Positions 1,259 to 40,551 of a DNA stretch of 64,000 nt are shown piece after piece. The DNA is from an uncultured archaeon (lineage in GTDB: Archaea > Aenigmatarchaeota > Aenigmatarchaeia > Aenigmatarchaeales > JAHLMS01): the NCBI GenBank assembly GCA_964353775.1, contig CAYGWB010000002.1:5185-69184 (forward strand), read 5' to 3'. A program made the position numbers and the translations under genes. Every line of letters starts with the position of its first letter. Within the stretch, counting starts at the first letter, position 1. The notes below the pieces were generated by a model that worked only from the letters and a program-made list of their open reading frames with translations, was not told the DNA's origin and searched no databases.

Positions 1259-1335
1259 GGAGAGGTAGCTCAGCCTGGGAGAGCGCACGGCTGAAGACCG
1301 TGATGTCGCGTGTTCAAACCACGCCCTCTCCACCA
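1259..1335 (+). tRNA. tRNA-Phe (anticodon GAA), CCA encoded
   Basis: Cloverleaf read directly: acceptor GGAGAGG/CCTCTCC, D-arm GCTC..GAGC, anticodon stem CACGG/CCGTG with loop CTGAAGA (GAA at 1293-1295), T-arm GCGTG-TTCAAAC-CACGC. Confidence 0.9.
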
Positions 1336-1369: not shown

Positions 1370-1924
1370 ATGCTCATCCGCCTCATCCCGGTAGGCGAGG
1401 TGACCGCCCAGGTAATTGAGGCCATTCTATCAGCCGTGCCTGAGGTCGTCGGCTCGAACATAAGACTGATGCCTGAGATGAGGCTACCGTCCGCGGCTTA
1501 CAATCAGTTCCGCAAACAGTACAGCGCGGACAAGGTGCTTTCGGCACTCAGCTCCACGTCGGCCGCCAAGTTCATAGATCACAGCATACCTTCGCTGTTC
1601 GTCACGGACGTCGACATCTACTACAGCGGCCTGAACTTCGTGTTCGGTCTGGAGGATCCGGCCGCGAGCGCTGCGATAATCTCGATTGCAAGACTGAAGC
1701 CTGAGTTCTATGACAAGCACCCGAATACTATCGTGCTGGTCGACAGGGCCGTAAAGGAAGCCATCCATGAGATCGGACACTATCTCGGCTTCGAGCATTG
1801 CCACCACAACTGGTGCGTCATGTCCTTCTCGCCTTCAGTGGACGATGTGGACAACAAGAAACGGGACTTCTGCAAGGACTGCTGCATAAAGGCGGCGATG
1901 AAGGGCGTGCACATTCCGGGTTAG
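1370..1924 (+). CDS. amzA: archaemetzincin (zinc metalloprotease)
   Basis: HEIGHYLGFEHC zincin motif plus C-terminal Cys cluster (CKDCC) typical of archaemetzincins. Confidence 0.8.
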   Translation: MLIRLIPVGEVTAQVIEAILSAVPEVVGSNIRLMPEMRLPSAAYNQFRKQYSADKVLSALSSTSAAKFIDHSIPSLFVTDVDIYYSGLNFVFGLEDPAASAAIISIARLKPEFYDKHPNTIVLVDRAVKEAIHEIGHYLGFEHCHHNWCVMSFSPSVDDVDNKKRDFCKDCCIKAAMKGVHIPG

Positions 1925-1961
1925 CAAAGCCTTAAATTGAGCGGCCGTATTTAATTGGTTC

Positions 1962-2480
1962 ATGGCATTTGCAGCAGAGCTTATCGAGAACAAGGTCGTC
2001 GTGACCGACCCGGAAGCGGTCGGCGAGCTTTACGAGTCCGTCTGGTATGGAAAGCAGACCGAGCAAGGAATCGAGCTCGAACTGGTCGAGGCCTGTCTGC
2101 TGGTGGAACGGACGCGAATAGAGATATCAAAGGGTGGAAAGAAGCTCGACTTCAAGGATTTCTATCACCTGTGCTGCGCTCTCGACGCCAGGTTCATCCC
2201 GCGATACGCCGTTTACCACGACCTGCGCGAGCGCGGGCTGCCTGTCCGCGTCGGGTTCAAGGGAACGGATTTCAAGGTCTACGAACGCGGCGCGAAACCG
2301 ACGACGGCCGCTGAAGCGAAATGGATAGTGTTCGCCGAGTCTGAGGACTATCCGTGCGAGTTCAACAAGCTCGGAAAAGCGATAAAACTGGCGCAGAACA
2401 TCCGTGCGCTCGCCCTTTGGGCTGTGATGGACAACGATCTGGACGTGACCTACTACATAATTTCGACTCCTAATGTGTGA
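1962..2480 (+). CDS. endA: tRNA-splicing endonuclease, structural (beta-like) subunit
   Basis: EndA fold motifs (FIPRYAVYHDLRERG, KWIVF) but lacks the catalytic His before KW; overlaps next gene by 4 nt. Confidence 0.65.
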   Translation: MAFAAELIENKVVVTDPEAVGELYESVWYGKQTEQGIELELVEACLLVERTRIEISKGGKKLDFKDFYHLCCALDARFIPRYAVYHDLRERGLPVRVGFKGTDFKVYERGAKPTTAAEAKWIVFAESEDYPCEFNKLGKAIKLAQNIRALALWAVMDNDLDVTYYIISTPNV

Positions 2481-3025
2481 TTGTTATGGCGATTGAAGCG
2501 ATACTGGCAGAGGACCGCGTGATCATCTGGAGCAAGTCCGGCAGGGGGATTTTCGAGGAGGATTATTTTGGAAAACTGAAAGAGGACCGTCTTGACTTGT
2601 CACTTATAGAAGCTGCGTACCTTCTGGATACGGAAAAAATAAAAATTTTGGACGTGGAAGAGAAGGAAATTGACAAGAAGGCATTCATAAAATATTGCCA
2701 GAAGATCGACCCGCGGTTCGATTTCCGCTACAGCGTCTACAAGGACCTTCGTTCGAAGCAGTTTCCGACACGGACCGGTTTCAAGTTCGGTTGCGACTTC
2801 CGTGTCTATGCAAAGGGTGTGAAGCCGCTAAAGCGCGGACCGAAATCCGCGAAGGAGCACACGAAGTGGATCGTATACGCTGTGCCGGAGAAGTTCGTCT
2901 GCTCTTTTCAGGAGCTCTCGCGAGCTGTCCGGCTCGCCCATAACATCAGAGCGAACATGTTGTGGGCCGTTGTCGGAGAAGAGGGCGACATAAAGTATTT
3001 CCAAGTTACCTTTTTCAAGCCTTAA
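2477..3025 (+). CDS. endA: tRNA-splicing endonuclease, catalytic (alpha-like) subunit
   Basis: EndA C-terminal catalytic region with Tyr/His/Lys (YSVYKDLR ... KEHTKWIVYAV). Confidence 0.7.
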   Translation: MIVMAIEAILAEDRVIIWSKSGRGIFEEDYFGKLKEDRLDLSLIEAAYLLDTEKIKILDVEEKEIDKKAFIKYCQKIDPRFDFRYSVYKDLRSKQFPTRTGFKFGCDFRVYAKGVKPLKRGPKSAKEHTKWIVYAVPEKFVCSFQELSRAVRLAHNIRANMLWAVVGEEGDIKYFQVTFFKP

Positions 3026-3088
3026 GAACGCGATTTTGACGCGACAAGCTTTATATTCTTATATTCCGTAATTAGAACGCGTGAGACC

Positions 3089-4243
3089 ATGATTGTAAGA
3101 GAGATAATGTCGTCCGATTTTGTCAAAATGGGGCCGGATGACACCGTACAAGAATTCATTTCTGCAATGGAACGATACCATATACACGCGGCGCCTGTGA
3201 TTGACGACCACGGAAAGCTTCTCGGAGACGTACAGTACAAGAAGCTGGCCGCAAAGGGCGTGCTCGATCCGTCAACCGCCAAGGTGCGGGCCATCATGGA
3301 TCCGATGCCGCCTACGCTAAAGCCCGACACGTCAGTCGAGGCTGCCGCTGACATGCTTTTCAAGACCGGAATGCGATCGCTGCCCGTAGTTGAGAACGGA
3401 AAAGTAACGGGAGTCATTTCCGTTTGGGACATCATGGAGTTCGCTGGCGGAACAAAATTGTTCAGACAGACGGCCGCCGATACCATAATGTCGAAGGCCG
3501 AAGTAATCAACCAGGACGATGACATCGGAAAGGCGCGCGTGATCATGCGCGAGAAAGGGCTCTCGCGTCTGCCTGTGGTCGACAACGATGGAAAGTTGGT
3601 CGGCATCATCGCGGTCTTCGACCTGCTGCGCTCGATCAAACCGCGCGAGAGGATGGGTTGGTTCTCAATGGCTTCGGAAGTGGATCGCATCATGGGCTGT
3701 CCAGTGAGAACTGTGATGAACAAGAATCCGACCACGATCGGACCGCGCACCAGCCTATCCGAGATTGCGACGCTCATGACCCAGAACAAGACATCAGGAA
3801 TAATAATTTCTGAAGGCACGACGCCGCTCGGCGTTGTGACGACGAAGGACATGCTGGAAGTGTTCGTTTCCTCGCTTTCCCAGAAGGGAGTCTACTATCA
3901 GATAATCGGTCTGGAAGAAGAGGACGAAATGACAACCAACACCGTGGATCGCATGATACGCGACACGTTGCAGAAGCTTTCATCCGTGGTTCCGCTCCAG
4001 TTCTTTTTCATACACGTCAAGAAGTACAGCCTTGAAGGGCTGCGAATAAAATATTCAGTACGGGCTAGGCTGCGCACCGACGCAGGAATGTTCATGGCAA
4101 GGACGGTCGCGTGGGACGCGCGCGATGCGGTCGGGCAGGCGCTCGACAATCTTGAGCGCATACTTCTGAAGAACAAGGATGAGAAAGTGACGAAGGCCAA
4201 GAAGAACGCGCGCAAGCTGAAGAATATGAAGCGGGGGCTTTGA
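3089..4243 (+). CDS. CBS-domain protein (four tandem CBS repeats)
   Basis: Repeated CBS-pair signatures (GxxxGIIS/VxD); TATA-like box about 35 nt upstream. Confidence 0.7.
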   Translation: MIVREIMSSDFVKMGPDDTVQEFISAMERYHIHAAPVIDDHGKLLGDVQYKKLAAKGVLDPSTAKVRAIMDPMPPTLKPDTSVEAAADMLFKTGMRSLPVVENGKVTGVISVWDIMEFAGGTKLFRQTAADTIMSKAEVINQDDDIGKARVIMREKGLSRLPVVDNDGKLVGIIAVFDLLRSIKPRERMGWFSMASEVDRIMGCPVRTVMNKNPTTIGPRTSLSEIATLMTQNKTSGIIISEGTTPLGVVTTKDMLEVFVSSLSQKGVYYQIIGLEEEDEMTTNTVDRMIRDTLQKLSSVVPLQFFFIHVKKYSLEGLRIKYSVRARLRTDAGMFMARTVAWDARDAVGQALDNLERILLKNKDEKVTKAKKNARKLKNMKRGL

Positions 4244-7040: not shown

Positions 7041-7114
7041 GGGGTCGTCGTCTAATGGTAGGATGTTAGTCTCCAAAACTAAGGACGGGCGTTCGAATCG
7101 CTCCGACCCCACCA
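7041..7114 (+). tRNA. tRNA-Trp (anticodon CCA), CCA encoded, no intron
   Basis: Acceptor GGGGTCG/CGACCCC, anticodon stem TTAGT/ACTAA with loop CTCCAAA (CCA at 7073-7075), T-arm GGGCG-TTCGAAT-CGCTC. Confidence 0.85.
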
Positions 7115-7129
7115 TAAACATCAAAGGAG

Positions 7130-7450
7130 GTGAGAAAGATGGGATTCGATGATTTTGAGATTGCAGACTTTTATACGTGTCCTTTGATAACAAAGAGGGG
7201 AAATTGTGACGTCGTATTAAAGAACTGTAATGTTGCAAGAAATAATACCGCTAAAAGAGATGATGGATTTCATTACGGAACTTGTGGTGTGTACATGTCT
7301 GAGGTGCAACGAATTTCGGCTTGTCCAGATAGAGAAATTGTTGTCGAAGACAAAAAGTGCAAAACATGCGGCTATGAAAATAAAGTTAAAACGGAGCATT
7401 GCAAAAAAAGCAGAAATGATTGCGACAGTTGCGGCATAAATACTAAATGA
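7130..7450 (+). CDS. cysteine-rich small protein (12 Cys), unknown function
   Basis: Strong SD AGGAGGTGA 8 nt upstream of ATG; multiple CxxC pairs; lies between tRNA-Trp and trpS. Confidence 0.5.
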   Translation: MRKMGFDDFEIADFYTCPLITKRGNCDVVLKNCNVARNNTAKRDDGFHYGTCGVYMSEVQRISACPDREIVVEDKKCKTCGYENKVKTEHCKKSRNDCDSCGINTK

Positions 7451-8586
7451 TAAATAGCAGGATAAACACAAAGATGGTAGATGATATGACAGAAGAAAAA
7501 CGCTTGACCCCGTTCGATGCGGGCGATGAGAAGATAGACTACGAGAAGCTCGTCAAGGAGTTCGGCACGGTGCCGTTGCCGGCGCAGATGGCCAAGAGGC
7601 TGTCGGACATACGCGCGTTCCGACACGGCTACGTGTTCAGCCACAGGGACTTCGACAAGTTCCTTGACGCACACGACACTGGCAAGAAGGTCGCGATAAT
7701 CACCGGTTTCAATGCGTCCGGCTCGATACACTTAGGCCACAAGCTGTCTTTCGACTGCGTCATAGAGCTCCAGAAAAAATTCAAGATACCCGCATACGTT
7801 CCGATATCGGACGATGAGAGCTACGTATGCGAGAAGGTCAAGGACCAGACCGAGGGGCTGAAGAACGCCCGTCTGATCGTTGCGCAGCTGCTCGCGCTCG
7901 GTTTCGACCCGAAGCTCACGAAGTTCTTCATACATCAGCAGTATACGAAAATCTACAACCTGGCCATCAAGCTGTCGCAGCGATACACGCTGAGCTCGAT
8001 AAAGGCCATTTACGGCTTCCCGGACAGCACGAACCCGGGTCTCATGTTCTATCCTGTGATACAGGCGGCGGACATACTCCTGCCGCAGGAGCCAGAGTTC
8101 GACGGTAAGAAGTTCACGGTCACTCCGATTGGCATTGACCAGGATCCGCACCTGAGATTGGCGCGCGACATAGCCGAAAAGTTCGGCTACATCAAACCGA
8201 CTACCTTCCACATAAAATATCTGCCCGGATTGCGTGGCGGAAAGATGTCGAAATCAAGACCGGGCAGCGCGCTGTTCCTAGATGAGAAACCCGAGACTGC
8301 GGCGAAGTACGCCATGAACACGCTGACGGGCGGACGGAATACGATTGAGGAGCAGAGAAGGCTCGGCGGAGAATATGACAAGTGCATAGTCGCGGAATAC
8401 ATGGCGGCCCACTTCAACACCGATGTCCAGATAGCAGAAAGGAGACGAAAGTGCTTGGGCGGGAAACTTTTGTGCGGCGAATGCAAGGGCGAACTGACCT
8501 GCGCCATCAAAAAGTTCTTGACGGAGTTCCAGGCGCGAGTCGCCAAGTTTGAAAAGCAGCTTGACAAGAATCTGATAAAGAATTAA
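7447..8586 (+). CDS. trpS: tryptophanyl-tRNA synthetase
   Basis: Class I HIGH-like (GSIHLGHKL) and KMSKS motifs; C-terminal CX6CX2CX5C cluster. Confidence 0.85.
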   Translation: MINSRINTKMVDDMTEEKRLTPFDAGDEKIDYEKLVKEFGTVPLPAQMAKRLSDIRAFRHGYVFSHRDFDKFLDAHDTGKKVAIITGFNASGSIHLGHKLSFDCVIELQKKFKIPAYVPISDDESYVCEKVKDQTEGLKNARLIVAQLLALGFDPKLTKFFIHQQYTKIYNLAIKLSQRYTLSSIKAIYGFPDSTNPGLMFYPVIQAADILLPQEPEFDGKKFTVTPIGIDQDPHLRLARDIAEKFGYIKPTTFHIKYLPGLRGGKMSKSRPGSALFLDEKPETAAKYAMNTLTGGRNTIEEQRRLGGEYDKCIVAEYMAAHFNTDVQIAERRRKCLGGKLLCGECKGELTCAIKKFLTEFQARVAKFEKQLDKNLIKN

Positions 8587-8616
8587 AGTTTTAAAGCAGG
8601 CTGCCAATAATAAGGC

Positions 8617-9948
8617 ATGCCATATGTTCTCACTAACGAAGGCAAGGAATGGCTGGCCAAGGGCCTGCCCGAGAGAAAGCTACTGGATTTCCTAAAAGAC
8701 GGCAGACGGACAATGGCCGAGGTAGCATTACTACCGTCTTCAGCTATTGCGATCGGATGGTCACGCAAGAACGGCTGGATAGCTATCGAGGAGAACCTTT
8801 TTGTCGAGCTGACTCAGGAAGGCAAGATAGTGTCAGCGACCAAGATGCCGCTTGAGCTCGCATTAGATAGCATCCGGAACACCGGGAATGCCAGCCAGGA
8901 AAGCATCCAAACGCTTCTTAATCGAGGCCTTATCCGGCCAGGATCCGGTGGACATGTAGGAATAGTTGAAAAGGTCCTTCACAAAAAACTCGAACTGCCT
9001 GTTCACATGCCGCACATGCCTGTGCACAAACCGGTGCAGACCGATATCGCCCAGATAACGCCCGACATGCTGAAGACCGGGCGATGGAAACAGATGCAGT
9101 TCAAGAAATACGATGTCGGCGCACCGGCTCCACAGCTGTGGACCGGCAAAAGGCACATGGTCATGCAGTTCCTGGAATACGTGAGGCGCATCTGGCTCGA
9201 GATGGGATTCAAGGAGATGTCCGGCGGGCTGACTGAAGGCGCATTCTGGAACTTCGATGCGCTCTACCAGCCGCAGGACCACCCGGCAAGGGACATGGCA
9301 GACACGTTCTATCTGAACCCGCCCGACAATTGTAGACTGCCGAACAAGGACCTGATCGAACGCGTCAGGCAGACACACGAGAACGGCTGGACGACCGGAA
9401 GCAAGGGATGGAAATACGGATGGTCGCAGGAGTTCGCATCAAAGGCATGTTTACGGACGCACACCACTGCGCTCAGCGCGCGCACGCTCGCAACGCTGAA
9501 AAAGCCCGACCTGCCCGCGAAATATTTCGCGATCGGCAGATGCTTCCGCAACGAGACGCTGGACTGGAAACATCTGTGCGAGTTCTACCAGGTCGAGGGA
9601 ATTGTAGTGGACGAGAACGTGACGTTCCGACATCTGCTCGGTTATCTTAAAAGGTTCTATACCATGCTCGGCTTTTCAAATGTCAGGTTCAGGCCGGCCT
9701 ACTTCCCGTACACGGAGATGTCGACCGAGATAGAGGTCTGGGATAAAGACAGAAAGGTGTGGCTGGAACTTGGTGGGGCCGGCATGTTCAGACCGGAGGT
9801 CGTCAAGCCGCTGATGAACATTGATATACCTGTGCTTGCTTGGGGACCTGGTGTAGAAAGAGTCGTATTCAACGCTTACAATCTGACAGACATCCGACAG
9901 CTCTACAACAACGACCTGTCGCTGCTGCGTGGAGCAAAGATGTGGTAA
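8617..9948 (+). CDS. pheS: phenylalanyl-tRNA synthetase alpha subunit
   Basis: Class II core with archaeal PheS motifs (FRNETLDWKHLCEFYQVEG, GPGVERV). Confidence 0.85.
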   Translation: MPYVLTNEGKEWLAKGLPERKLLDFLKDGRRTMAEVALLPSSAIAIGWSRKNGWIAIEENLFVELTQEGKIVSATKMPLELALDSIRNTGNASQESIQTLLNRGLIRPGSGGHVGIVEKVLHKKLELPVHMPHMPVHKPVQTDIAQITPDMLKTGRWKQMQFKKYDVGAPAPQLWTGKRHMVMQFLEYVRRIWLEMGFKEMSGGLTEGAFWNFDALYQPQDHPARDMADTFYLNPPDNCRLPNKDLIERVRQTHENGWTTGSKGWKYGWSQEFASKACLRTHTTALSARTLATLKKPDLPAKYFAIGRCFRNETLDWKHLCEFYQVEGIVVDENVTFRHLLGYLKRFYTMLGFSNVRFRPAYFPYTEMSTEIEVWDKDRKVWLELGGAGMFRPEVVKPLMNIDIPVLAWGPGVERVVFNAYNLTDIRQLYNNDLSLLRGAKMW

Positions 9949-9950
9949 TT

Positions 9951-11606
9951 ATGTCAACAATGATTTTCAACAGGAAGGACTTCTGCAAGCTGGTCGGAAA
10001 GGATTTCTCGACTGATGAGCTGGCCGAAAAGCTTCCGATGCTCGGCCTCGGTTGGGAGAAGGTCGACGGCGAAGAGATAGAGGTGGAAATATTCCCGAAC
10101 AGGCCTGATATGCTGAGCGTGGAAGGCCTGGCCCGTGCGTTCTCAGCGTTCGCAGGCGTGAAAACAGGCCTGCCGAAGTATTCGGCAATCGATTCAGGAT
10201 GCAAGGTGCATGTAGACAAGGAAGTAACCAAAATCAGGCCGTACATAGCTACCGTCATTGTCAAGGGAATAAACATGGACGACGCGACGACCAAGAGCAT
10301 GCTTCAGCTGCAGGAGAAGCTGCACATAAGCCACTGCAGGCGACGAGCAAAGGCGTCGATAGGTTTCTACGACCTGGACAAGATAACGTTCCCCGTCAGG
10401 TATACGACGGCCTCGCCTGACATAAAGTTCAGCCCGCTCGGCTGGGACGTGCCCCATACACTAAAGGACATACTTGAGAAGCACCCGCGTGGCGTCGAAT
10501 ACGGATGGACGCTCAACGGATGCAACTGCTATCCGATACTTGCGGACGACAAACACGTGATACTGTCGATGCCCCCGATAATAAACAACAGAGATGTCGC
10601 GCTGACAATCGAGACGAAGAACCTGTTCATCGACGTCACGGGCACGGACCACAGGACGGTCAAGGAGGTCCTGAACATAATAGTTGCAGCATTGGCCGAC
10701 CGAGGCGGCAAGATATACTCCGTCAACATCGAATATTCAAATTTGAGCGAAACGACGCCCGATATGACTCCGTCCAAGATGAAGCTCGAACTGGACTATG
10801 TGAACAAGCTGCTCGGATTAAAACTGACGCTCCAAGAGGCCATGGGTCTGCTGAAGCACATGAATTTTGACGCGAAATCCGCCGGCAAGGAGGCCGCGAT
10901 CGAGGCGACCGTCCCGACATATAGAACGGATGTGATGCATCCAATCGATCTTGTGGAGGATGTTGCGATCGCATATGGCTACCAGAATTTCGTTCCTGAG
11001 CTGCCGAAGCTGTCAACGATCGGCGAGGAAGCGCCAATCGAGGTGTTCAGCAGAAAATTGATGTTGATAATGACCGGTCTCGGTTTCCAGGAAGCGCTGA
11101 CATACGTACTCAGCAACAACACGAAAATGTTCAAGAACATGAACCTCCCGGAACAGACCGCGGCGAAGACACTGAACCCTCGAACAGCGGAGTTCACTTC
11201 TGTCCGCACATGGCTGCTGCCCTCCATCATGGAGGCGCTGGCCGCCAACCAGCACAACCTGTTCCCGCAGAAGCTTGTCGAGGTCGGAGACTGTGTGGTG
11301 CTGGACAGTACGAGCGAGACCGGAACAAGAAACGTGCGCAAGCTCGCTGGAGCAATCTGCTATGATGTCGCTAACCTGACCGAATGCAAGTCCGTGGTCG
11401 AATCCGTACTCAAGAACCTCGGTCTGAAATATGAAATAAAACCTGCTGATCATCTGAGCTTCATACCCAGCAGGCTCGGTGAAATATTCGTTGGCGGAAA
11501 GAAAATAGGATTCTTCGGAGAAATTCATCCGTCTGTTCTGTCCAACTGGAAACTTGAGAAACCGGTGATTGCATTCGAGCTGGATGTCGAATCTCTCAAG
11601 GCATGA
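9951..11606 (+). CDS. pheT: phenylalanyl-tRNA synthetase beta subunit
   Basis: ATG 3 nt after pheS stop (MSTMIFNRKDF...); B3/B4 and B5 domain architecture of archaeal PheT. Confidence 0.8.
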   Translation: MSTMIFNRKDFCKLVGKDFSTDELAEKLPMLGLGWEKVDGEEIEVEIFPNRPDMLSVEGLARAFSAFAGVKTGLPKYSAIDSGCKVHVDKEVTKIRPYIATVIVKGINMDDATTKSMLQLQEKLHISHCRRRAKASIGFYDLDKITFPVRYTTASPDIKFSPLGWDVPHTLKDILEKHPRGVEYGWTLNGCNCYPILADDKHVILSMPPIINNRDVALTIETKNLFIDVTGTDHRTVKEVLNIIVAALADRGGKIYSVNIEYSNLSETTPDMTPSKMKLELDYVNKLLGLKLTLQEAMGLLKHMNFDAKSAGKEAAIEATVPTYRTDVMHPIDLVEDVAIAYGYQNFVPELPKLSTIGEEAPIEVFSRKLMLIMTGLGFQEALTYVLSNNTKMFKNMNLPEQTAAKTLNPRTAEFTSVRTWLLPSIMEALAANQHNLFPQKLVEVGDCVVLDSTSETGTRNVRKLAGAICYDVANLTECKSVVESVLKNLGLKYEIKPADHLSFIPSRLGEIFVGGKKIGFFGEIHPSVLSNWKLEKPVIAFELDVESLKA

Positions 11607-12044
11607 TTACCAGCCGTGCTCGCTGTAGAAAATCTCTTTCAGAATCATCTCGATGGCCTGCCTGATATAAGGAACCGTGTTTGCAGGCAGCTTGTCGAGC
11701 TCGAACCATCCCATGTCATCACACCTGTCCGGCTCCATTATCTTAGGTTCGTTGCGCCACTTACTCGCTCGTATGAACACGTCCACCCTCTCGTCGCGGG
11801 GCGTCTTCCTGTGCATCACATGGACGACCTTCAGGTCCTCCGATCGCACAACGATACCCGCCTCCTCTTTCGCCTCCCTGATCAGCGCCTGTATGAACGT
11901 TTCGTTCCCGTCAAGATGGCCTGCCACAAAACTGTAATTGCCGTCCTCGTAGCCGGTGTTGATCCGCCTGCTAAGAAGTATCTTGCCGTGCTCTATCAGA
12001 ATCAGATAAGATGCCGGAACGGCCTTGAACCTTTCTTTTGGCAT
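11607..12044 (-). CDS. NUDIX hydrolase
   Basis: Nudix box GHLDGNETFIQALIREAKEEAGI. Confidence 0.8.
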   Translation of the reverse strand: MPKERFKAVPASYLILIEHGKILLSRRINTGYEDGNYSFVAGHLDGNETFIQALIREAKEEAGIVVRSEDLKVVHVMHRKTPRDERVDVFIRASKWRNEPKIMEPDRCDDMGWFELDKLPANTVPYIRQAIEMILKEIFYSEHGW

Positions 12045-12047
12045 GGT

Positions 12048-12818
12048 TCAACCCGCTAGGTAAGCAATCATCCTGTCGAACCAGTTCTTTTTCTTGACAG
12101 GGTCCGTCCAGGTATCGCCAGAAATGGAAGCCGCCAGCCGCTTGAACTCCCTGGCCGCCGGGCTCCTCGGGTTGTAGTGGACAACAGGCGTCTTTTCGGC
12201 TATGGAACGCGGGACTGAGATGTCCTCAGGCACGATCCCTATCACGGGCACCTCGAGCATATCTCGGATGTCCGCGACTGTCATCTCGTGGCTGCGACCA
12301 CGCACGCGGTTGACGACGACGCCGACTATCTTTGTGCCTATTTCCTTCCCTATCTTGATAGCCTTCAACGCGTCCGTCAGAGAAGGCATGTCCGGATTTG
12401 TGACAATGATCATCTCGTCTGCGACCTCCATTATCGCGGTCGCCTCCTTTCCCAGGCCGGCCGCACCGTCTATCAGGATTATTTCTGCTGTGCCCAGCAG
12501 GTTCATAAGGGCGCCGGCGAGCTTGTTGATGTTCATCCCCTTTAGGGCTCCGACCGAGAGCGATGCTGGTATTATCCTCAGACCGGATTTGTGCGTGTAG
12601 ATTGCGTGGCGGATGTGGGCCTTTCCTGACAAGGCATCATGCAGTGTTATCGGCGCCAGCGGAATGCCCAAGTGGAGTGACAGATTAGGTGTGGTGACGT
12701 TCCCGTCCATGACTATGACGGATTTGCCTCTCTCGGCAAGAGCCGCACCGAGGTTAGAAGTCGTTGTTGTTTTGCCCACGCCACCCTTCGCGGACAGAAC
12801 AGCTATTATACGCGTCAC
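12048..12818 (-). CDS. MinD/ParA-family P-loop ATPase
   Basis: Deviant Walker A KGGVGKTT, MinD-like length and motifs. Confidence 0.8.
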   Translation of the reverse strand: MTRIIAVLSAKGGVGKTTTTSNLGAALAERGKSVIVMDGNVTTPNLSLHLGIPLAPITLHDALSGKAHIRHAIYTHKSGLRIIPASLSVGALKGMNINKLAGALMNLLGTAEIILIDGAAGLGKEATAIMEVADEMIIVTNPDMPSLTDALKAIKIGKEIGTKIVGVVVNRVRGRSHEMTVADIRDMLEVPVIGIVPEDISVPRSIAEKTPVVHYNPRSPAAREFKRLAASISGDTWTDPVKKKNWFDRMIAYLAG

Positions 12819-12872
12819 AGGACCACGAGAATAGTTGTTAAAGCAAGAATAAAAAGGTTATTTCTTGTCTGA

Positions 12873-13103
12873 CTATTTAAGTGGTCCGAATTTTTTTTCG
12901 TATTCGTCGGCAATTTTTTTGTATGATTCGACAAGTTTCAGGCCGACTTCCAGACGTCCTAACTGCAAGTCTTCTCTCATTCGTCTTATGGCGTAATGGA
13001 CCAAATCGCTCCTATTAGTATAATTTCCTTTCTCTACTTCGTCGTTCATCCATTGCCAGTCATTCCGATTTACTGTTATTGTGACTTTCTTGCTGTTGCC
13101 CAT
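12873..13103 (-). CDS. ribbon-helix-helix (CopG/Arc-like) small DNA-binding protein
   Basis: Internal Met start (MGNSKKVTITVNRNDW...); beta-strand then two helices, typical RHH; immediately upstream of MinD-like ATPase. Confidence 0.5.
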   Translation of the reverse strand: MGNSKKVTITVNRNDWQWMNDEVEKGNYTNRSDLVHYAIRRMREDLQLGRLEVGLKLVESYKKIADEYEKKFGPLK

Positions 13104-13138
13104 GAAAGAAACTACGAAAATAAACTTTATAAACACAA

Positions 13139-13267
13139 TGGTGCCCCGGATGGGATTTGGACCCACGACCTCTTGCTGTCTTCATCCTTCAGTCAGATCT
13201 TCTAAGTTGGACTTAGAAGGTTCGCCGGTATCCCTCAAGCGCTCTATCCAACCTGAGCTACCGGGGC
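13139..13267 (-). tRNA. intron-containing tRNA gene (129 nt incl. CCA); anticodon not assignable with a single canonical intron; tentative tRNA-Arg(UCU) under a two-intron model
   Basis: Minus strand reads GCCCCGG-TA-GCTC-AGGTTGGATA-GAGC-G ... AGGTC-GTGGG-TCCAAAT-CCCAT-CCGGGGC-A-CCA (canonical acceptor, D- and T-arms) with about 51 extra nt in the anticodon region, including a perfect 9-bp hairpin CTTCTAAGT-CCA-ACTTAGAAG. Confidence 0.7.
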
Positions 13268-13289
13268 AAACTAGATTTCGGCTGCGCAG

Positions 13290-13305
13290 CTTATAAATTT
13301 ATAAG
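13290..13305. promoter_or_regulatory. perfect 16-bp palindromic TATA-like element CTTATAAATTTATAAG between the divergent tRNA (5' end 13267) and leuS (ATG 13327)
   Basis: Sequence is its own reverse complement; about 22-37 nt from both transcription units. Confidence 0.5.
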
Positions 13306-13326
13306 AACAGGCGGGAAAGACTTGAC

Positions 13327-16071
13327 ATGTCAGAGTGGCAGAAGATTGAAAAGAAGTGGCAGGCCGAATGGGCAAAATCAAAGCTCTTCGAGGCCGAGCC
13401 TGACAAGAGAAAGAAGTATTACATGCTCTTCGCCTATCCGACCGTGAGCGGCACGCTGCACGTCGGGCATGCACGCAGCTATTCGATGCCAGATGTGATA
13501 GCCAGATACAAGCGTGCGCGAGGCTTCAACGTCTTCTTCCCGCTCGGTTTCCACGCGACAGGCGTGGACTGCGAACGGATACTTCAGAAGTCAAAGGACG
13601 CCGAGGCGATTGTAAAGTACGGCATAAACGCGAATGATGCTAAAAAGTTCAAGAACCCGCTGAATGTGGCGGAATACCTGCAAAAGGGAATAATGGATTC
13701 TTTCAGCCAGATGGGCCTTTCACTGGACAACAGGCCGGCCGTCAGCACCATCCACCCGCAGTACGGAAAGTTCATCCAGTGGCAGTTCAAGAAACTGAAG
13801 GAACTCGGCCTGCTCATACAGCGCGACTACCGTCTGGCATGGTGTCCGACAGAGAACCATCCGGTGAGTCTCGATCCGGCCGAAGCGGACATCCAGGAAT
13901 GGAAGGGCGCCCAGATCAAGGATTATATAATAATCAAGTTCGAGTTCGACGACATGGTGCTGCCTGCAGCGACAATGCGGCCGGAGACAATTTTTGGAGT
14001 GACGAACGTCTGGGTCAACCCGGAAGCCAAGTACGTAAAGGCGAAGGTGGACGGAGAGGCCTGGTTGATAGCAGAGCCTGCCGTGAAGAAGCTGCAGGAC
14101 CTGGACAAGAAAGTGGAAGTGATGGGAAAGTTCGACCCGAACAAACTGATAGGGCTGGAGGTAAAGAACCCGGCGACCGGCAAAACAATCCCTGTGCTGG
14201 AAGGCAGCTTCGTCGACCAGAACGAGGCGACCGGTGTCGTGATGTCCGTGCCAGCGCATGACCCGTTCGATTTCATCCACCTCAACATGATTGCGCCGGA
14301 CATAAAGCCGATACAGGTCGTGGAAGTCGCCGGACATGGCGGCATACCGGCTGGCGAGATGGTCGCAAAGAACAACATAACGGATCCGAACGATCCGAGA
14401 CTTGAGCTCATAGTCAAGGACCTCTACAAGATGGAGTTCGGCGGCAAGATGCATTCGATAGCCGGAAAGTTCGCAGGCATGCCCGTCCCTAAGGCGAAGA
14501 CGGCGATAACGCAGTGGCTTGCAAAGGACGGGAAGGCTGACATGATATACGAGCTGTCCGCGAAGCCTGTGCACTGCAGGTGCGGAGCTGAAATAATAAT
14601 CAAGAAGGTCCATGGTCAGTGGTTCATAGACTACGGCAATGAGGACTGGAAAAAGAAAACGAAAGGGCATATCGACAAAATGACCATCTATCCGCCGGAG
14701 TACAAGACCGAGCTGCCTGCGATAATAGACTGGCTCGAAGCCAGACCGTGCGTCAGACGACGCGGTCTTGGCACAGCGTTCCCGTTCGAACCTGGCTGGA
14801 TAATCGAGGCCATTTCCGACAGCACGATATACATGGCGTTCTACATCATCTCGAAATATTTCAACGCGGGCAAAATCAAGATAGACGAACTGACAGACTA
14901 TTTCTTCGACTATGTATTCTTGGGCAAAGGCAAGCCGAAGAAGAAGCTGTGGGAGAGCATCCGAAAAGATTTCCTCTACTGGTACCCGCTCGACCTGAAC
15001 GCCATAGGCAAGGAGCACAAGTCCGTACACTTGCCGTTCTTCATAATGAACCACGTCGCCGTCTTCCCGGAGAAGCAATGGCCGAACGGGATATTCGTCA
15101 ACTGGCACCTGGTCGCTTACGGAAAGAAACTGTCGAAGCACCTTGGCAACGTGATATTCTGGAACGACGCGATCAAAAAGTATGGCGCGGACTCGATACG
15201 GTTCTACCTGACTCACGGCTCGAACCAGTGGCATGACTTTGACTGGAAGAGCGAGGACTGCGAGAACTACGGACGTCAGCTGACAAACTTCTACCAGACA
15301 GTGCAAAGGCTGATAGAGAACAAGAAGACGGCCAGAGCGGTAAGACCGATAGACAGATGGCTGCGCTCTCGGCTGAACAGGCACATCAAAGACGTGACGG
15401 AAGCGCTGGACAAGGCCGAAATAAGAAAGGCCATCGACACGGCTTTCTTTAACATATCGTCCGATGTCGGCTGGTACCTGAAAAGGACTGACAGCCCGCG
15501 CATCGACTGGCTCGGCGACTGGCTGAAGCTGCTCGCTCCGTTCATCCCTCACACGACAGAGGAGCTGTGGCACCTGGCAGGAAACAAGAACTTCCTGATC
15601 AATTCGGGATGGCCCGAATATGACAGCAAGGCCGTGAACCTTTCGACCGAGGCCGGAGAGGACATGGTCCGCAGGCTGCAGGGCAATATAGACGAGATAA
15701 AGAAAATTTCAAAGATATCGAGGCCCGCAAAGATTTCAATCATCGTGAGCGCGCCATGGAAGTATGACGTCTACAAGATAGTCATGGACGGGAAGTCGCT
15801 GCGCGAGATAATGGAGGATAAGAAGCTGAAGCCGCTCGGAGCGGCGGTCGCGAACTACGTCCAAAGGCTGCAGAAGAAAAAGCCGCTGGACGAACTGTTC
15901 CTTGGAGCAGGCAGCGAACTGGCCGCGCTACGTGATACCAAAGAGTTCTATGAGAAGGCATTCGGCTGTCCTGTAGAAATCTGGGAATCAGAGAAGGCCG
16001 CGAGCATTTCCGAACTTGCGAACAAGGCCGCTGCTGCTGAACCTGGCAAACCTGGAATATTAATAATGTGA
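13327..16071 (+). CDS. leuS: leucyl-tRNA synthetase (archaeal type)
   Basis: HIGH-like TLHVGHARSY, KMSKS-like region, CP1 editing domain, 914 aa. Confidence 0.9.
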   Translation: MSEWQKIEKKWQAEWAKSKLFEAEPDKRKKYYMLFAYPTVSGTLHVGHARSYSMPDVIARYKRARGFNVFFPLGFHATGVDCERILQKSKDAEAIVKYGINANDAKKFKNPLNVAEYLQKGIMDSFSQMGLSLDNRPAVSTIHPQYGKFIQWQFKKLKELGLLIQRDYRLAWCPTENHPVSLDPAEADIQEWKGAQIKDYIIIKFEFDDMVLPAATMRPETIFGVTNVWVNPEAKYVKAKVDGEAWLIAEPAVKKLQDLDKKVEVMGKFDPNKLIGLEVKNPATGKTIPVLEGSFVDQNEATGVVMSVPAHDPFDFIHLNMIAPDIKPIQVVEVAGHGGIPAGEMVAKNNITDPNDPRLELIVKDLYKMEFGGKMHSIAGKFAGMPVPKAKTAITQWLAKDGKADMIYELSAKPVHCRCGAEIIIKKVHGQWFIDYGNEDWKKKTKGHIDKMTIYPPEYKTELPAIIDWLEARPCVRRRGLGTAFPFEPGWIIEAISDSTIYMAFYIISKYFNAGKIKIDELTDYFFDYVFLGKGKPKKKLWESIRKDFLYWYPLDLNAIGKEHKSVHLPFFIMNHVAVFPEKQWPNGIFVNWHLVAYGKKLSKHLGNVIFWNDAIKKYGADSIRFYLTHGSNQWHDFDWKSEDCENYGRQLTNFYQTVQRLIENKKTARAVRPIDRWLRSRLNRHIKDVTEALDKAEIRKAIDTAFFNISSDVGWYLKRTDSPRIDWLGDWLKLLAPFIPHTTEELWHLAGNKNFLINSGWPEYDSKAVNLSTEAGEDMVRRLQGNIDEIKKISKISRPAKISIIVSAPWKYDVYKIVMDGKSLREIMEDKKLKPLGAAVANYVQRLQKKKPLDELFLGAGSELAALRDTKEFYEKAFGCPVEIWESEKAASISELANKAAAAEPGKPGILIM

Positions 16072-40475: not shown

Positions 40476-40551
40476 TGGTAGCCCCGGTAGGATTCGAACC
40501 TACGTCCGCTGCTCCAGAGGCAGCTATCCTTGGCCGCTAGACGACGGGGCT
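40476..40551 (-). tRNA. tRNA-Gln (anticodon CUG), CCA encoded
   Basis: Minus strand AGCCCCG...anticodon stem GCTGC/GCAGC loop CTCTGGA...T-arm GTAGG-TTCGAAT-CCTAC...CGGGGCT-A-CCA. Confidence 0.85.

Follow-up and report, generated by a model that had tools for sequence, protein, structure and literature searches.

Positions 13139–13267 of the 64,000-nucleotide (nt) stretch of DNA analysed here (the window; contig CAYGWB010000002.1, positions 5,185 to 69,184), which comes from an uncultured archaeon of the Aenigmatarchaeota, hold what is very probably a genuine and functional tRNA-Arg(UCU) gene of this DPANN lineage, interrupted by two protein-spliced introns of the bulge-helix-bulge (BHB) type. 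An initial annotation had placed a tRNA gene with about 51 nt of inserted sequence at exactly these coordinates; the gene lies on the minus strand and reads from 13267 to 13139. Its layout, with the introns in square brackets, is GCCCCGG-UA-GCUC-AGGUUGGAUA-GAGC-G-CUUG[AGGGAUACCGGCGAA]CCUUCUA[AGUCCAACUUAGAAGAUCUGACUGAAGGAUGAAGAC]AGCAAG-AGGUC-GUGGG-UCCAAAU-CCCAU-CCGGGGC-A-CCA. The acceptor stem (GCCCCGG/CCGGGGC), the D stem and the T stem (GUGGG/CCCAU) are fully paired and continuous with the gene ends. The distance from G26 to the variable loop AGGUC is 68 nt, as first annotated, and the inserted sequence divides into introns of 15 and 36 nt.

Removal of both introns in silico leaves a product of 75 nt (78 nt with CCA) that folds as a cloverleaf and is called tRNA-Arg(tct) by ARAGORN. 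The spliced anticodon arm consists of a 5-bp stem, CUUGC/GCAAG, and the loop CUUCUAA with U33 and A37 present, just as modelled in the initial annotation, and CUUGC-CUUCUAA-GCAAG is identical to the tRNA-Arg(UCU) arm in L001 and L003–L014, intron-less genes among them (L numbers designate the loci compared). The major identity elements for arginyl-tRNA synthetase are A20 and C35, and both are present in the spliced product, A20 in the D-loop AGGUUGGAUA and C35 in the anticodon. A pattern scan of species-representative genomes provided 14 tRNA-Arg(UCU) genes without an intron at position 30/31, of which 13 belong to Woese-, Pace- and Nanoarchaeota and one to a Nitrosomirales metagenome-assembled genome; 12 of these are intron-less, and the other two have an intron at 37/38 only. 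CCA is encoded in none of these 14 genes and in all four tRNA genes of the window (1259–1335, 7041–7114, 13139–13267, and 40476–40551). When the window was searched for acceptor-stem pairs with a T-arm and with NCCA after them, nothing beyond these four was returned.

EndA cuts BHB motifs after the second nucleotide of the bulge, and the cut was placed accordingly in the scan rule. The BHB is defined as a 4-bp central helix between two 3-nt bulges that hold the splice sites (PMC7714728), and the strict hBHBh' rule applied here required a 4-bp helix H that has a 3-nt bulge to its 3' side on both strands and is flanked by helices h and h', each with 2 bp or more. The unspliced precursor contains exactly one such motif, that of intron 1. 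Its helix H is formed by C25G26C27U28 and GGCG, the bulges are UG↓A and AA↓C (the arrow marks the cut), h consists of G22A23G24/C32U33U34 (3 bp), and h' of GG/CC (2 bp), which closes the loop GAUA. When intron 1 is taken out, the precursor again contains exactly one strict motif, that of intron 2, and ARAGORN, independently, finds an intron of 36 nt at the same site. Here, H is formed by C32U33U34C35 and GAAG (13183–13180), the bulges are UA↓A and AC↓A, and h' is GUCC/GGAU (4 bp), while h is the 5-bp anticodon stem, of which a single pair is available before intron 1 has left. Both junctions of intron 2 have an AAG, so that its position is ambiguous by sequence, and excision at 37/38, 38/39, or 39/40 gives an identical product. 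The predicted BHB motif picks 37/38, which makes one intron of the gene canonical and the other non-canonical. Of the two excisions proposed initially, the 15-nt one at 30/31 stands, and the second, drawn at 38/39, is equivalent in product but shifts to the canonical site favoured by the motif.

A chance origin of this two-intron resolution is excluded. When the 68-nt stretch was shuffled, strict BHB excisions yielded a valid anticodon arm in 0 of 3000 cases, and shuffling the two intron sequences in place gave 1 case in 3000. Iterative, greedy removal of strict BHB motifs worked for the window, L016 and L020, but went astray in the long, AT-rich precursors of L017–L019 because chance motifs abound there; those genes were annotated by hand and then scored. 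The single-intron Woese- and Pacearchaeota genes L002, L004, and L013, intended as the scanner control, gave no correct strict motif, so that this control is not clean; checked by hand, L002 and L004 have central helices with 3 of 4 positions paired. The introns found independently by ARAGORN in L026 and in the window gene minus intron 1 served as a substitute control, and both agree with the cut after the second bulge nucleotide. The features of the gene, its flanks, the EndA genes, and the intron content of the orthologues described below are collected in the table.

Table. Features of the tRNA-Arg(UCU) locus and the EndA genes in window coordinates, followed by the intron sites of the Aenigmatarchaeota orthologues
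Feature	Position	Strand	Description
Whole tRNA-Arg(UCU) gene	13139–13267	−	129 nt, three exons and two introns; 3' CCA encoded (13141–13139)
Exon 1	13236–13267	−	tRNA positions 1–30: acceptor 5' strand, D-arm, G26, CUUG of anticodon stem
Intron 1	13221–13235	−	15 nt, AGGGAUACCGGCGAA; non-canonical site 30/31, 5' strand of anticodon stem
Exon 2	13214–13220	−	7 nt, CCUUCUA, positions 31–37, including anticodon U34 C35 U36
Intron 2	13178–13213	−	36 nt, AGUCCAACUUAGAAGAUCUGACUGAAGGAUGAAGAC; canonical site 37/38
Anticodon-loop complement CUUAGAAG	13199–13206	−	Within intron 2; pairs with C32–A37 and the first two intron nucleotides
Box D'-like CUGA	13193–13196	−	Within intron 2, exactly 2 nt past the complement
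Box C'-like AUGAAGA	13179–13185	−	Within intron 2; consensus RUGAUGA; interpretive assignment
Exon 3	13139–13177	−	Positions 38–76: A38, GCAAG, variable loop AGGUC, T-arm, acceptor 3' strand, A73, CCA
TATA-like TTTATAA	13291–13297	−	Ends 23 nt upstream of tRNA +1; putative promoter element
T-rich tract TTTATTTT	13117–13124	−	15 nt 3' of the CCA end; putative archaeal terminator
EndA beta-like (structural-type)	1962–2480	+	172 aa; 4-nt overlap with alpha gene; both Pfam EndA domains (tRNA_int_endo_N, tRNA_int_endo)
EndA alpha-like (catalytic-type)	2477–3025	+	182 aa; Pfam tRNA_int_endo_N and tRNA_int_endo
Window, L016, L020, L021			Introns 30/31 and 37/38
L022			Introns D-loop, 30/31 (38 nt, duplicated GGCGAACCU), and 37/38
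L023			Introns 30/31 (37 nt), 37/38, and 59/60
L017, L018 (=L019)			Introns 30/31 (34–35 nt), 37/38, and 59/60 (about 77 nt)
L024, L028			Introns D-loop and 37/38
L027			Introns 37/38 and 59/60
L025, L026			Intron 37/38 only

Twelve Aenigmatarchaeota orthologues beyond the window gene were obtained from a metagenome scan and from look-ups of homologues of leucyl-tRNA synthetase (LeuRS), whose gene lies head-to-head with the tRNA-Arg gene; nine of them were fetched beside LeuRS. All 13 genes, that of the window included, splice in silico to tRNA-Arg(tct), and the window product is identical at 71 of 75 positions to that of the single-intron gene L025. Each gene has one to three introns, distributed over four sites (D-loop, 30/31, 37/38, and 59/60). 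The 37/38 intron is present in every one of them, with H paired at 4/4 positions in ten and at 3/4 in three. The 30/31 intron is found in eight of the 13, each time with H paired 4/4 and an h of 3 bp; the window type is kept in L016, L020, and L021, and longer versions occupy the same site in L017, L018, L022, and L023. Its h' helix shifts by compensation (GG/CC, GA/UC in L020 and L022, UUGCU/GGCAA), and T-stem pair 50:64 covaries among the orthologues as U-A, A-U, G-C, and C-G. These compensatory changes rule out chance and make a pseudogene unlikely. Relatives with a LeuRS of no more than 77–79% identity still have the two-intron architecture. A comparison with orthologous tRNA genes had been suggested with the initial annotation, and it finds the same two introns kept, with compensatory change.

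Other introns in the set differ in character. The third intron, located in the T-loop at 59/60, ranges from 22 to about 98 nt (L017 5960–6191, plus strand; L018 3948–4180, minus strand; L023; L027), and the D-loop introns of L022, L024, and L028 match only relaxed BHB motifs under the scan rule used. The 30/31 introns of L022 (763–941, minus strand) and L023 (1262–1441, minus strand) contain a tandem repeat of their own 3' end, and in addition a degenerate copy of the anticodon loop, GGCGAA-CCUCCGAGG...GGCGAA-CCUUCUAAG, which suggests growth via local duplication or else two nested introns. In the woesearchaeal L001 (about 2150–2250, plus strand), a second copy of the 3' part of tRNA-Arg, AAUCCUGUCGGGAGCGUCCGGAUUUGA, lies about 90 nt downstream of the gene, in an arrangement that resembles the duplicated attachment site of an integrated element.

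The TATA-like element upstream of the window gene sits in the palindrome TTATAAATTTATAA (13291–13304), which is common to the divergent LeuRS gene and may act as a bidirectional promoter between the two. The palindromic element is kept upstream of the orthologues L021, L023, L025, and L026.

From these features a splicing route can be proposed. Transcription of the minus strand would give a precursor body of 129 nt in which CCA is already present, and EndA, with its alpha-like and beta-like subunits encoded 10 kb away, would cut within the 3-nt bulges of both motifs, leaving three exons for an RNA ligase to join. The two BHB motifs are mutually exclusive because they share nucleotides, the motif of intron 1 using C25–U28 and C32–U34, and that of intron 2 using 27–31/39–43 and C32–C35; the precursor must therefore refold between the two cuts. 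Processing is probably sequential with intron 1 excised first, which is the simplest order since the primary transcript contains the complete motif of this intron alone. We infer expression, cleavage, splicing order, and ligation from the sequence. The RtcB-type motif HSGSR was not found by regular-expression search among the open reading frames (ORFs) of the window.

The window encodes the separate alpha-like and beta-like EndA subunits that the initial annotation described, as adjacent paralogues. The best PDB matches of the alpha-like protein are M. jannaschii EndA (1a79) and N. equitans NEQ205 (3iey_A), and of the Tyr-His-Lys catalytic triad it carries Tyr and His. The beta-like protein has its best PDB match in the fused M. 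kandleri enzyme (5x89), in the half named “EndA-like protein”, and has the Tyr but neither the catalytic His nor the Lys. Between Tyr and His, the alpha-like subunit has a 7-residue insert (YAKGVKPLKRGPKSAKEH, compared with YERGANIDKEH in M. jannaschii) that is placed as in NEQ205, and which we take to correspond to the “L3” loop of Kaneta et al. 2018. This loop has been associated with disrupted tRNA genes in DPANN archaea, where broad EndA specificity is tied to it no less than to the (alpha-beta)2 architecture (Kaneta et al. 2018, PMC5829648). For DPANN as well as TACK archaea, tRNAs with several introns and EndAs of broad specificity are on record (PMC5829648; PMC4033280). The link drawn initially between non-canonical introns and heterotetrameric (alpha-beta)2 EndA is refined in two respects: the “L3” loop is equally implicated in DPANN, and one of the two introns is canonical. 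The 4-nt overlap of the two genes, an operon-like arrangement, hints at assembly of an alpha/beta heterotetramer.

Synteny was compared between window positions 1370–4243 and the regions L030 927–3247, L031 945–3195, and L029 1–2028. The gene order in the window is peptidase M54, EndA-beta, EndA-alpha, CBS, and the syntenic site in the L025 and L026 lineages, which have the canonical intron only, reads M54, single EndA, CBS. The L017-type lineage, with three introns, has two EndA genes, 1.1 kb apart. Among four lineages, non-canonical introns therefore go with a second EndA paralogue in two, and the canonical intron alone with a single syntenic EndA in the other two. This pattern fits the published idea of co-evolution (PMC5829648, PMC4090602, PMC4033280), with the restriction that it covers four lineages and that a beta subunit may be encoded elsewhere.

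A further role can tentatively be suggested for intron 2, as an addition to the reading of the gene given above: it could be a minimal, one-sided C'/D' kink-turn (K-turn) guide for 2'-O-methylation of U34, acting before splicing or as the excised, possibly circular, intron, with a switch to the BHB fold licensing splicing. Slightly more doubtful is the complete two-state RNA switch, in which a guide and C'/D' K-turn with L7Ae, Nop5, and fibrillarin, assembled on this one K-turn, would methylate U34 in cis, and in the second state GAAG would quit the D'-like box for C32–C35, so that the BHB fold would permit splicing. The anticodon-loop complement CUUAGAAG forms a proximal hairpin of 8–9 bp (eight Watson-Crick pairs, extended to nine by RNAfold), in agreement with the 9-bp hairpin initially noted between the anticodon loop and the intron. 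Its UAGAAG is invariant in 13/13 orthologues, and the hairpin is lengthened by two intron-intron pairs, both of which covary (AU 7 / UA 3 for one; GC, CG, AU, UA, UG for the other). In all 13, intron 2 has the same order: C32–A37, a short loop, UAGAAG, a 2-nt spacer, and YUGA or CAGA, the D'-like box, in which GA is invariant (CUGA in nine, UUGA in two, CAGA in two). Downstream of this box follow a 5–6-nt loop or a stable hairpin, GAU-GA (11/13), 1–4 nt, and the 3' splice site. Read as a C' box, GAUGA is seen in 11/13 (L024 and L027 diverge), and L017 and L018 combine an exact AUGAUGA with CAGA.

Several of these properties favour guide function. The fifth residue upstream of the D'-like box pairs with U34 in 13/13 orthologues, within a duplex of 7–9 bp. 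According to the box C/D methylation rule, it is the nucleotide paired with the fifth position upstream of box D or D' that is methylated, by guides of 10–12 nt, and C/D guides within tRNA introns act in cis (PMC7994747). Archaeal tRNAs are also known to contain derivatives of 2'-O-methylated U34, Um34 (PMC7668247). The layout of complement, 2-nt spacer, and YUGA/CAGA is common to all orthologues, and most of them continue to GAU-GA. In a hand-anchored alignment of the C'/D' module with about ten distinct sequences, the GA dinucleotides are invariant on both sides and the neighbouring pairs D'2:C'5 (UA 7, AU 2, UU 1) and D'1:C'6 (CG 7, UA 1, UG 1) covary. L018, L017, and L024 can be drawn as textbook K-turns, with a canonical stem, a 3-nt bulge, and tandem G.A pairs. 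Three orthologues retain GAUG, which makes a better box C' and a worse BHB helix H, and this suggests selection independent of splicing. The hairpin fold is the predicted minimum free energy structure in 7/13 and is more stable than the BHB fold in 12/13. The proximal hairpin is incompatible with helix H, and the guide and BHB folds are mutually exclusive because the 3' strand of that helix (H3) doubles as the GAAG core of the C'-like box, as are the guide and splicing folds of pre-tRNA-Trp. A BHB motif with the proximal hairpin as its H or h' was considered as well and is geometrically impossible, since the anticodon stem fixes H3 beside position 38.

Other observations argue against a guide. 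Intron 2 has a single C/D-like pair, but in natural archaeal guides C/D and C'/D' occur together, and its 7–9-bp duplex is short of the usual 10–12 nt. The C' box of the window, UGAAGA, departs from UGAUGA, the modules of L016 and L027 are irregular rather than clean K-turns, and the covariation comes from the few sequences anchored by hand. Moreover, a helix between anticodon and intron is common in pre-tRNAs without guide function, and no Rfam family matches the locus. Regular-expression searches of the window found no motifs of fibrillarin, L7Ae, or Nop5 among its ORFs, and no complete box C/D small RNA anywhere in it. By eye, and with no formal search made, no convincing second C/D pair was seen in the precursor (UGAGGGA at the exon 1/intron 1 junction being an example considered). 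If the two-state switch holds, intron 2 would be without precedent in three ways: as an intron-borne guide outside tRNA-Trp-type introns, as a natural “half-mer” C/D guide, and as such a guide in DPANN.

Five points weigh against the assignment of a functional, twice-interrupted tRNA-Arg(UCU) gene. The T-loop, UCCAAAU, has C55 (13160, minus strand) in place of the near-universal U55, the site of pseudouridine, and so lacks U54-U55-C56; the initial description of the arms as canonical and contiguous therefore stands for their contiguity but not for this loop. Among all sequences examined, C55 is confined to this organism (the window and the Logan assembly L015) and the pacearchaeal L013, and all 12 Aenigmatarchaeota orthologues have UUCAAAU with U55. 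Secondly, the alpha-like EndA has an Ala (residue about 159) at the position of M. jannaschii Lys156 (IRANML compared with VRKKLL). An Ala occupies the canonical Lys position in 11/11 aligned sequences, namely the alpha-like EndA and ten Aenigmatarchaeota homologues, and NEQ205 has Lys; it is speculation that the Lys-rich insert GVKPLKRGPK between Tyr and His compensates for the missing residue. Thirdly, the BHB conformer of intron 2 is predicted at −10.8 kcal/mol and the alternative hairpin at −13.7 kcal/mol, so that the BHB fold is not the ground state. In addition, part of the D-stem must open for the motif of intron 1 to form. Finally, tRNA genes were surveyed within the window, and a second, intact tRNA-Arg(UCU) gene may be present elsewhere in the genome.

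Some of these points could be turned into the argument that the locus is a decaying pseudogene in which insertions have accumulated, with tRNA-Arg(UCU) supplied by another locus. C55 in an otherwise near-universal U54-U55-C56 would agree with decay, as would the survey confined to the window and the failure of standard detectors, the locus giving no match with ARAGORN in default mode or with Rfam (at the gathering threshold, or at E<=10 on 13000–13400). We nevertheless consider decay very improbable. Both BHB motifs are strict and intact, the four stems are fully paired, and pairing in the T stem has been kept by compensatory change relative to the orthologues; the promoter-like element and CCA are conserved, and so is the two-intron architecture over the LeuRS divergence given above. 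The shuffles further indicate that random insertions do not leave a perfect anticodon arm to be restored. A tRNA-Gln(CUG) with a long variable region and a single intron, of 36 nt and at 33/34, which ARAGORN (-i) returns for the unspliced sequence as the sole single-intron solution, can be dismissed as an artefact, given a G.G mismatch in its anticodon stem, a 20-nt variable region drawn without pairing, no strict BHB at its intron boundaries, and a normal tRNA-Gln(CUG) already at 40476–40551, and given that the same mode assigns the orthologues L016, L020, L021, and L025 to Arg(ACG), Gln(CUG), Phe(GAA), and SeC(UCA), differing identities for one orthologous gene that mark such calls as artefacts. 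The initial statement that removal of one intron at 37/38 leaves no valid anticodon arm is in line with this poor model.

A tRNA-Arg(UCU) gene with two BHB introns thus remains the preferred assignment, and it has practical consequences. The gene is missed by default ARAGORN and Rfam, and the intron mode mislabels it and its orthologues as Gln, Phe, Arg(ACG), and SeC (selenocysteine). In annotated genomes of these archaea, tRNA-Arg(UCU) will therefore seem to be missing, and inferences on completeness or codon usage would be wrong. For DPANN genomes this is an annotation hazard, in which one orthologous tRNA gene takes several false identities. With one to three introns at four sites, the same gene also offers a natural series for relating intron gain and loss to endonuclease architecture. 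The guide/K-turn switch proposed for intron 2 and the EndA clade without the canonical Lys are oddities that can be tested.

The gene lies among genes for translation (7447–16071): a class I synthetase of Trp/Tyr type (7447–8586), the alpha (8617–9948) and beta (9840–11606) subunits of phenylalanyl-tRNA synthetase, and LeuRS (13327–16071). A tRNA-Trp gene (7041–7114) is found just upstream of the Trp/Tyr-type synthetase. A mechanically called ORF on the minus strand (12873–13166) overlaps the 3' end of the tRNA; its true start is likely the ATG at 13103, from which it would encode a 76-aa ribbon-helix-helix protein, with Pfam RHH_8 just below the cut-off.

Archaeal tRNAs with several BHB-spliced introns are a known phenomenon, of which the tRNA-Arg(UCU) gene is a further example. 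The literature searched contained no published description of such tRNAs in Aenigmatarchaeota. A close parallel is offered by the multi-intron tRNAs of Thermoproteales and other Crenarchaeota (detected by SPLITS/SPLITSX, with as many as three introns in a gene), which have the same mix of canonical and non-canonical BHB introns, similarly short introns (about 12–40 nt), an intron content that varies among relatives, and a heteromeric EndA (PMC4033280, PMC4090602). Unlike these, the present gene is from DPANN and not TACK, and the alpha EndA has an insert of Nanoarchaeum type between Tyr and His instead of the crenarchaeal N-terminal loop. The DPANN systems treated by Kaneta et al. 2018, including NEQ205/NEQ261 of N. 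equitans (PDB 3iey), belong to the same DPANN lineage and share the position of the alpha insert. Further disrupted tRNA genes, still unidentified, were predicted there for DPANN genomes, and the Aenigmatarchaeota tRNA genes are outside the set analysed in that work (PMC5829648). N. equitans has split tRNAs where multi-intron tRNAs are found here, and the alpha EndA differs by the Lys to Ala replacement in all 11 aligned sequences.

With respect to intron 2, the system to compare is the C/D guide in the intron of euryarchaeal pre-tRNA-Trp (Clouet-d'Orval et al. 2001; Bortolin et al. 2003). That intron is at the same 37/38 site, has a complement to the anticodon loop, and pairs the fifth nucleotide upstream of a CUGA box with position 34. 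It carries two guides and a full set of C, D', C', and D boxes, whereas intron 2 has one D'-like and one C'-like box with a predicted 7–9-bp duplex. The intron 2 guide is a hypothesis of low probability, and we do not classify it as a guide of the pre-tRNA-Trp type. The variation in intron content has a counterpart in Caldiarchaeum subterraneum (PMC3293823), for which similar intron differences are reported in orthologous tRNA genes of close relatives, pointing to ongoing gain and loss. That archaeon belongs to another phylum, and the comparison made here extends over species- to family-level relatives and follows one gene that is mostly linked to LeuRS.

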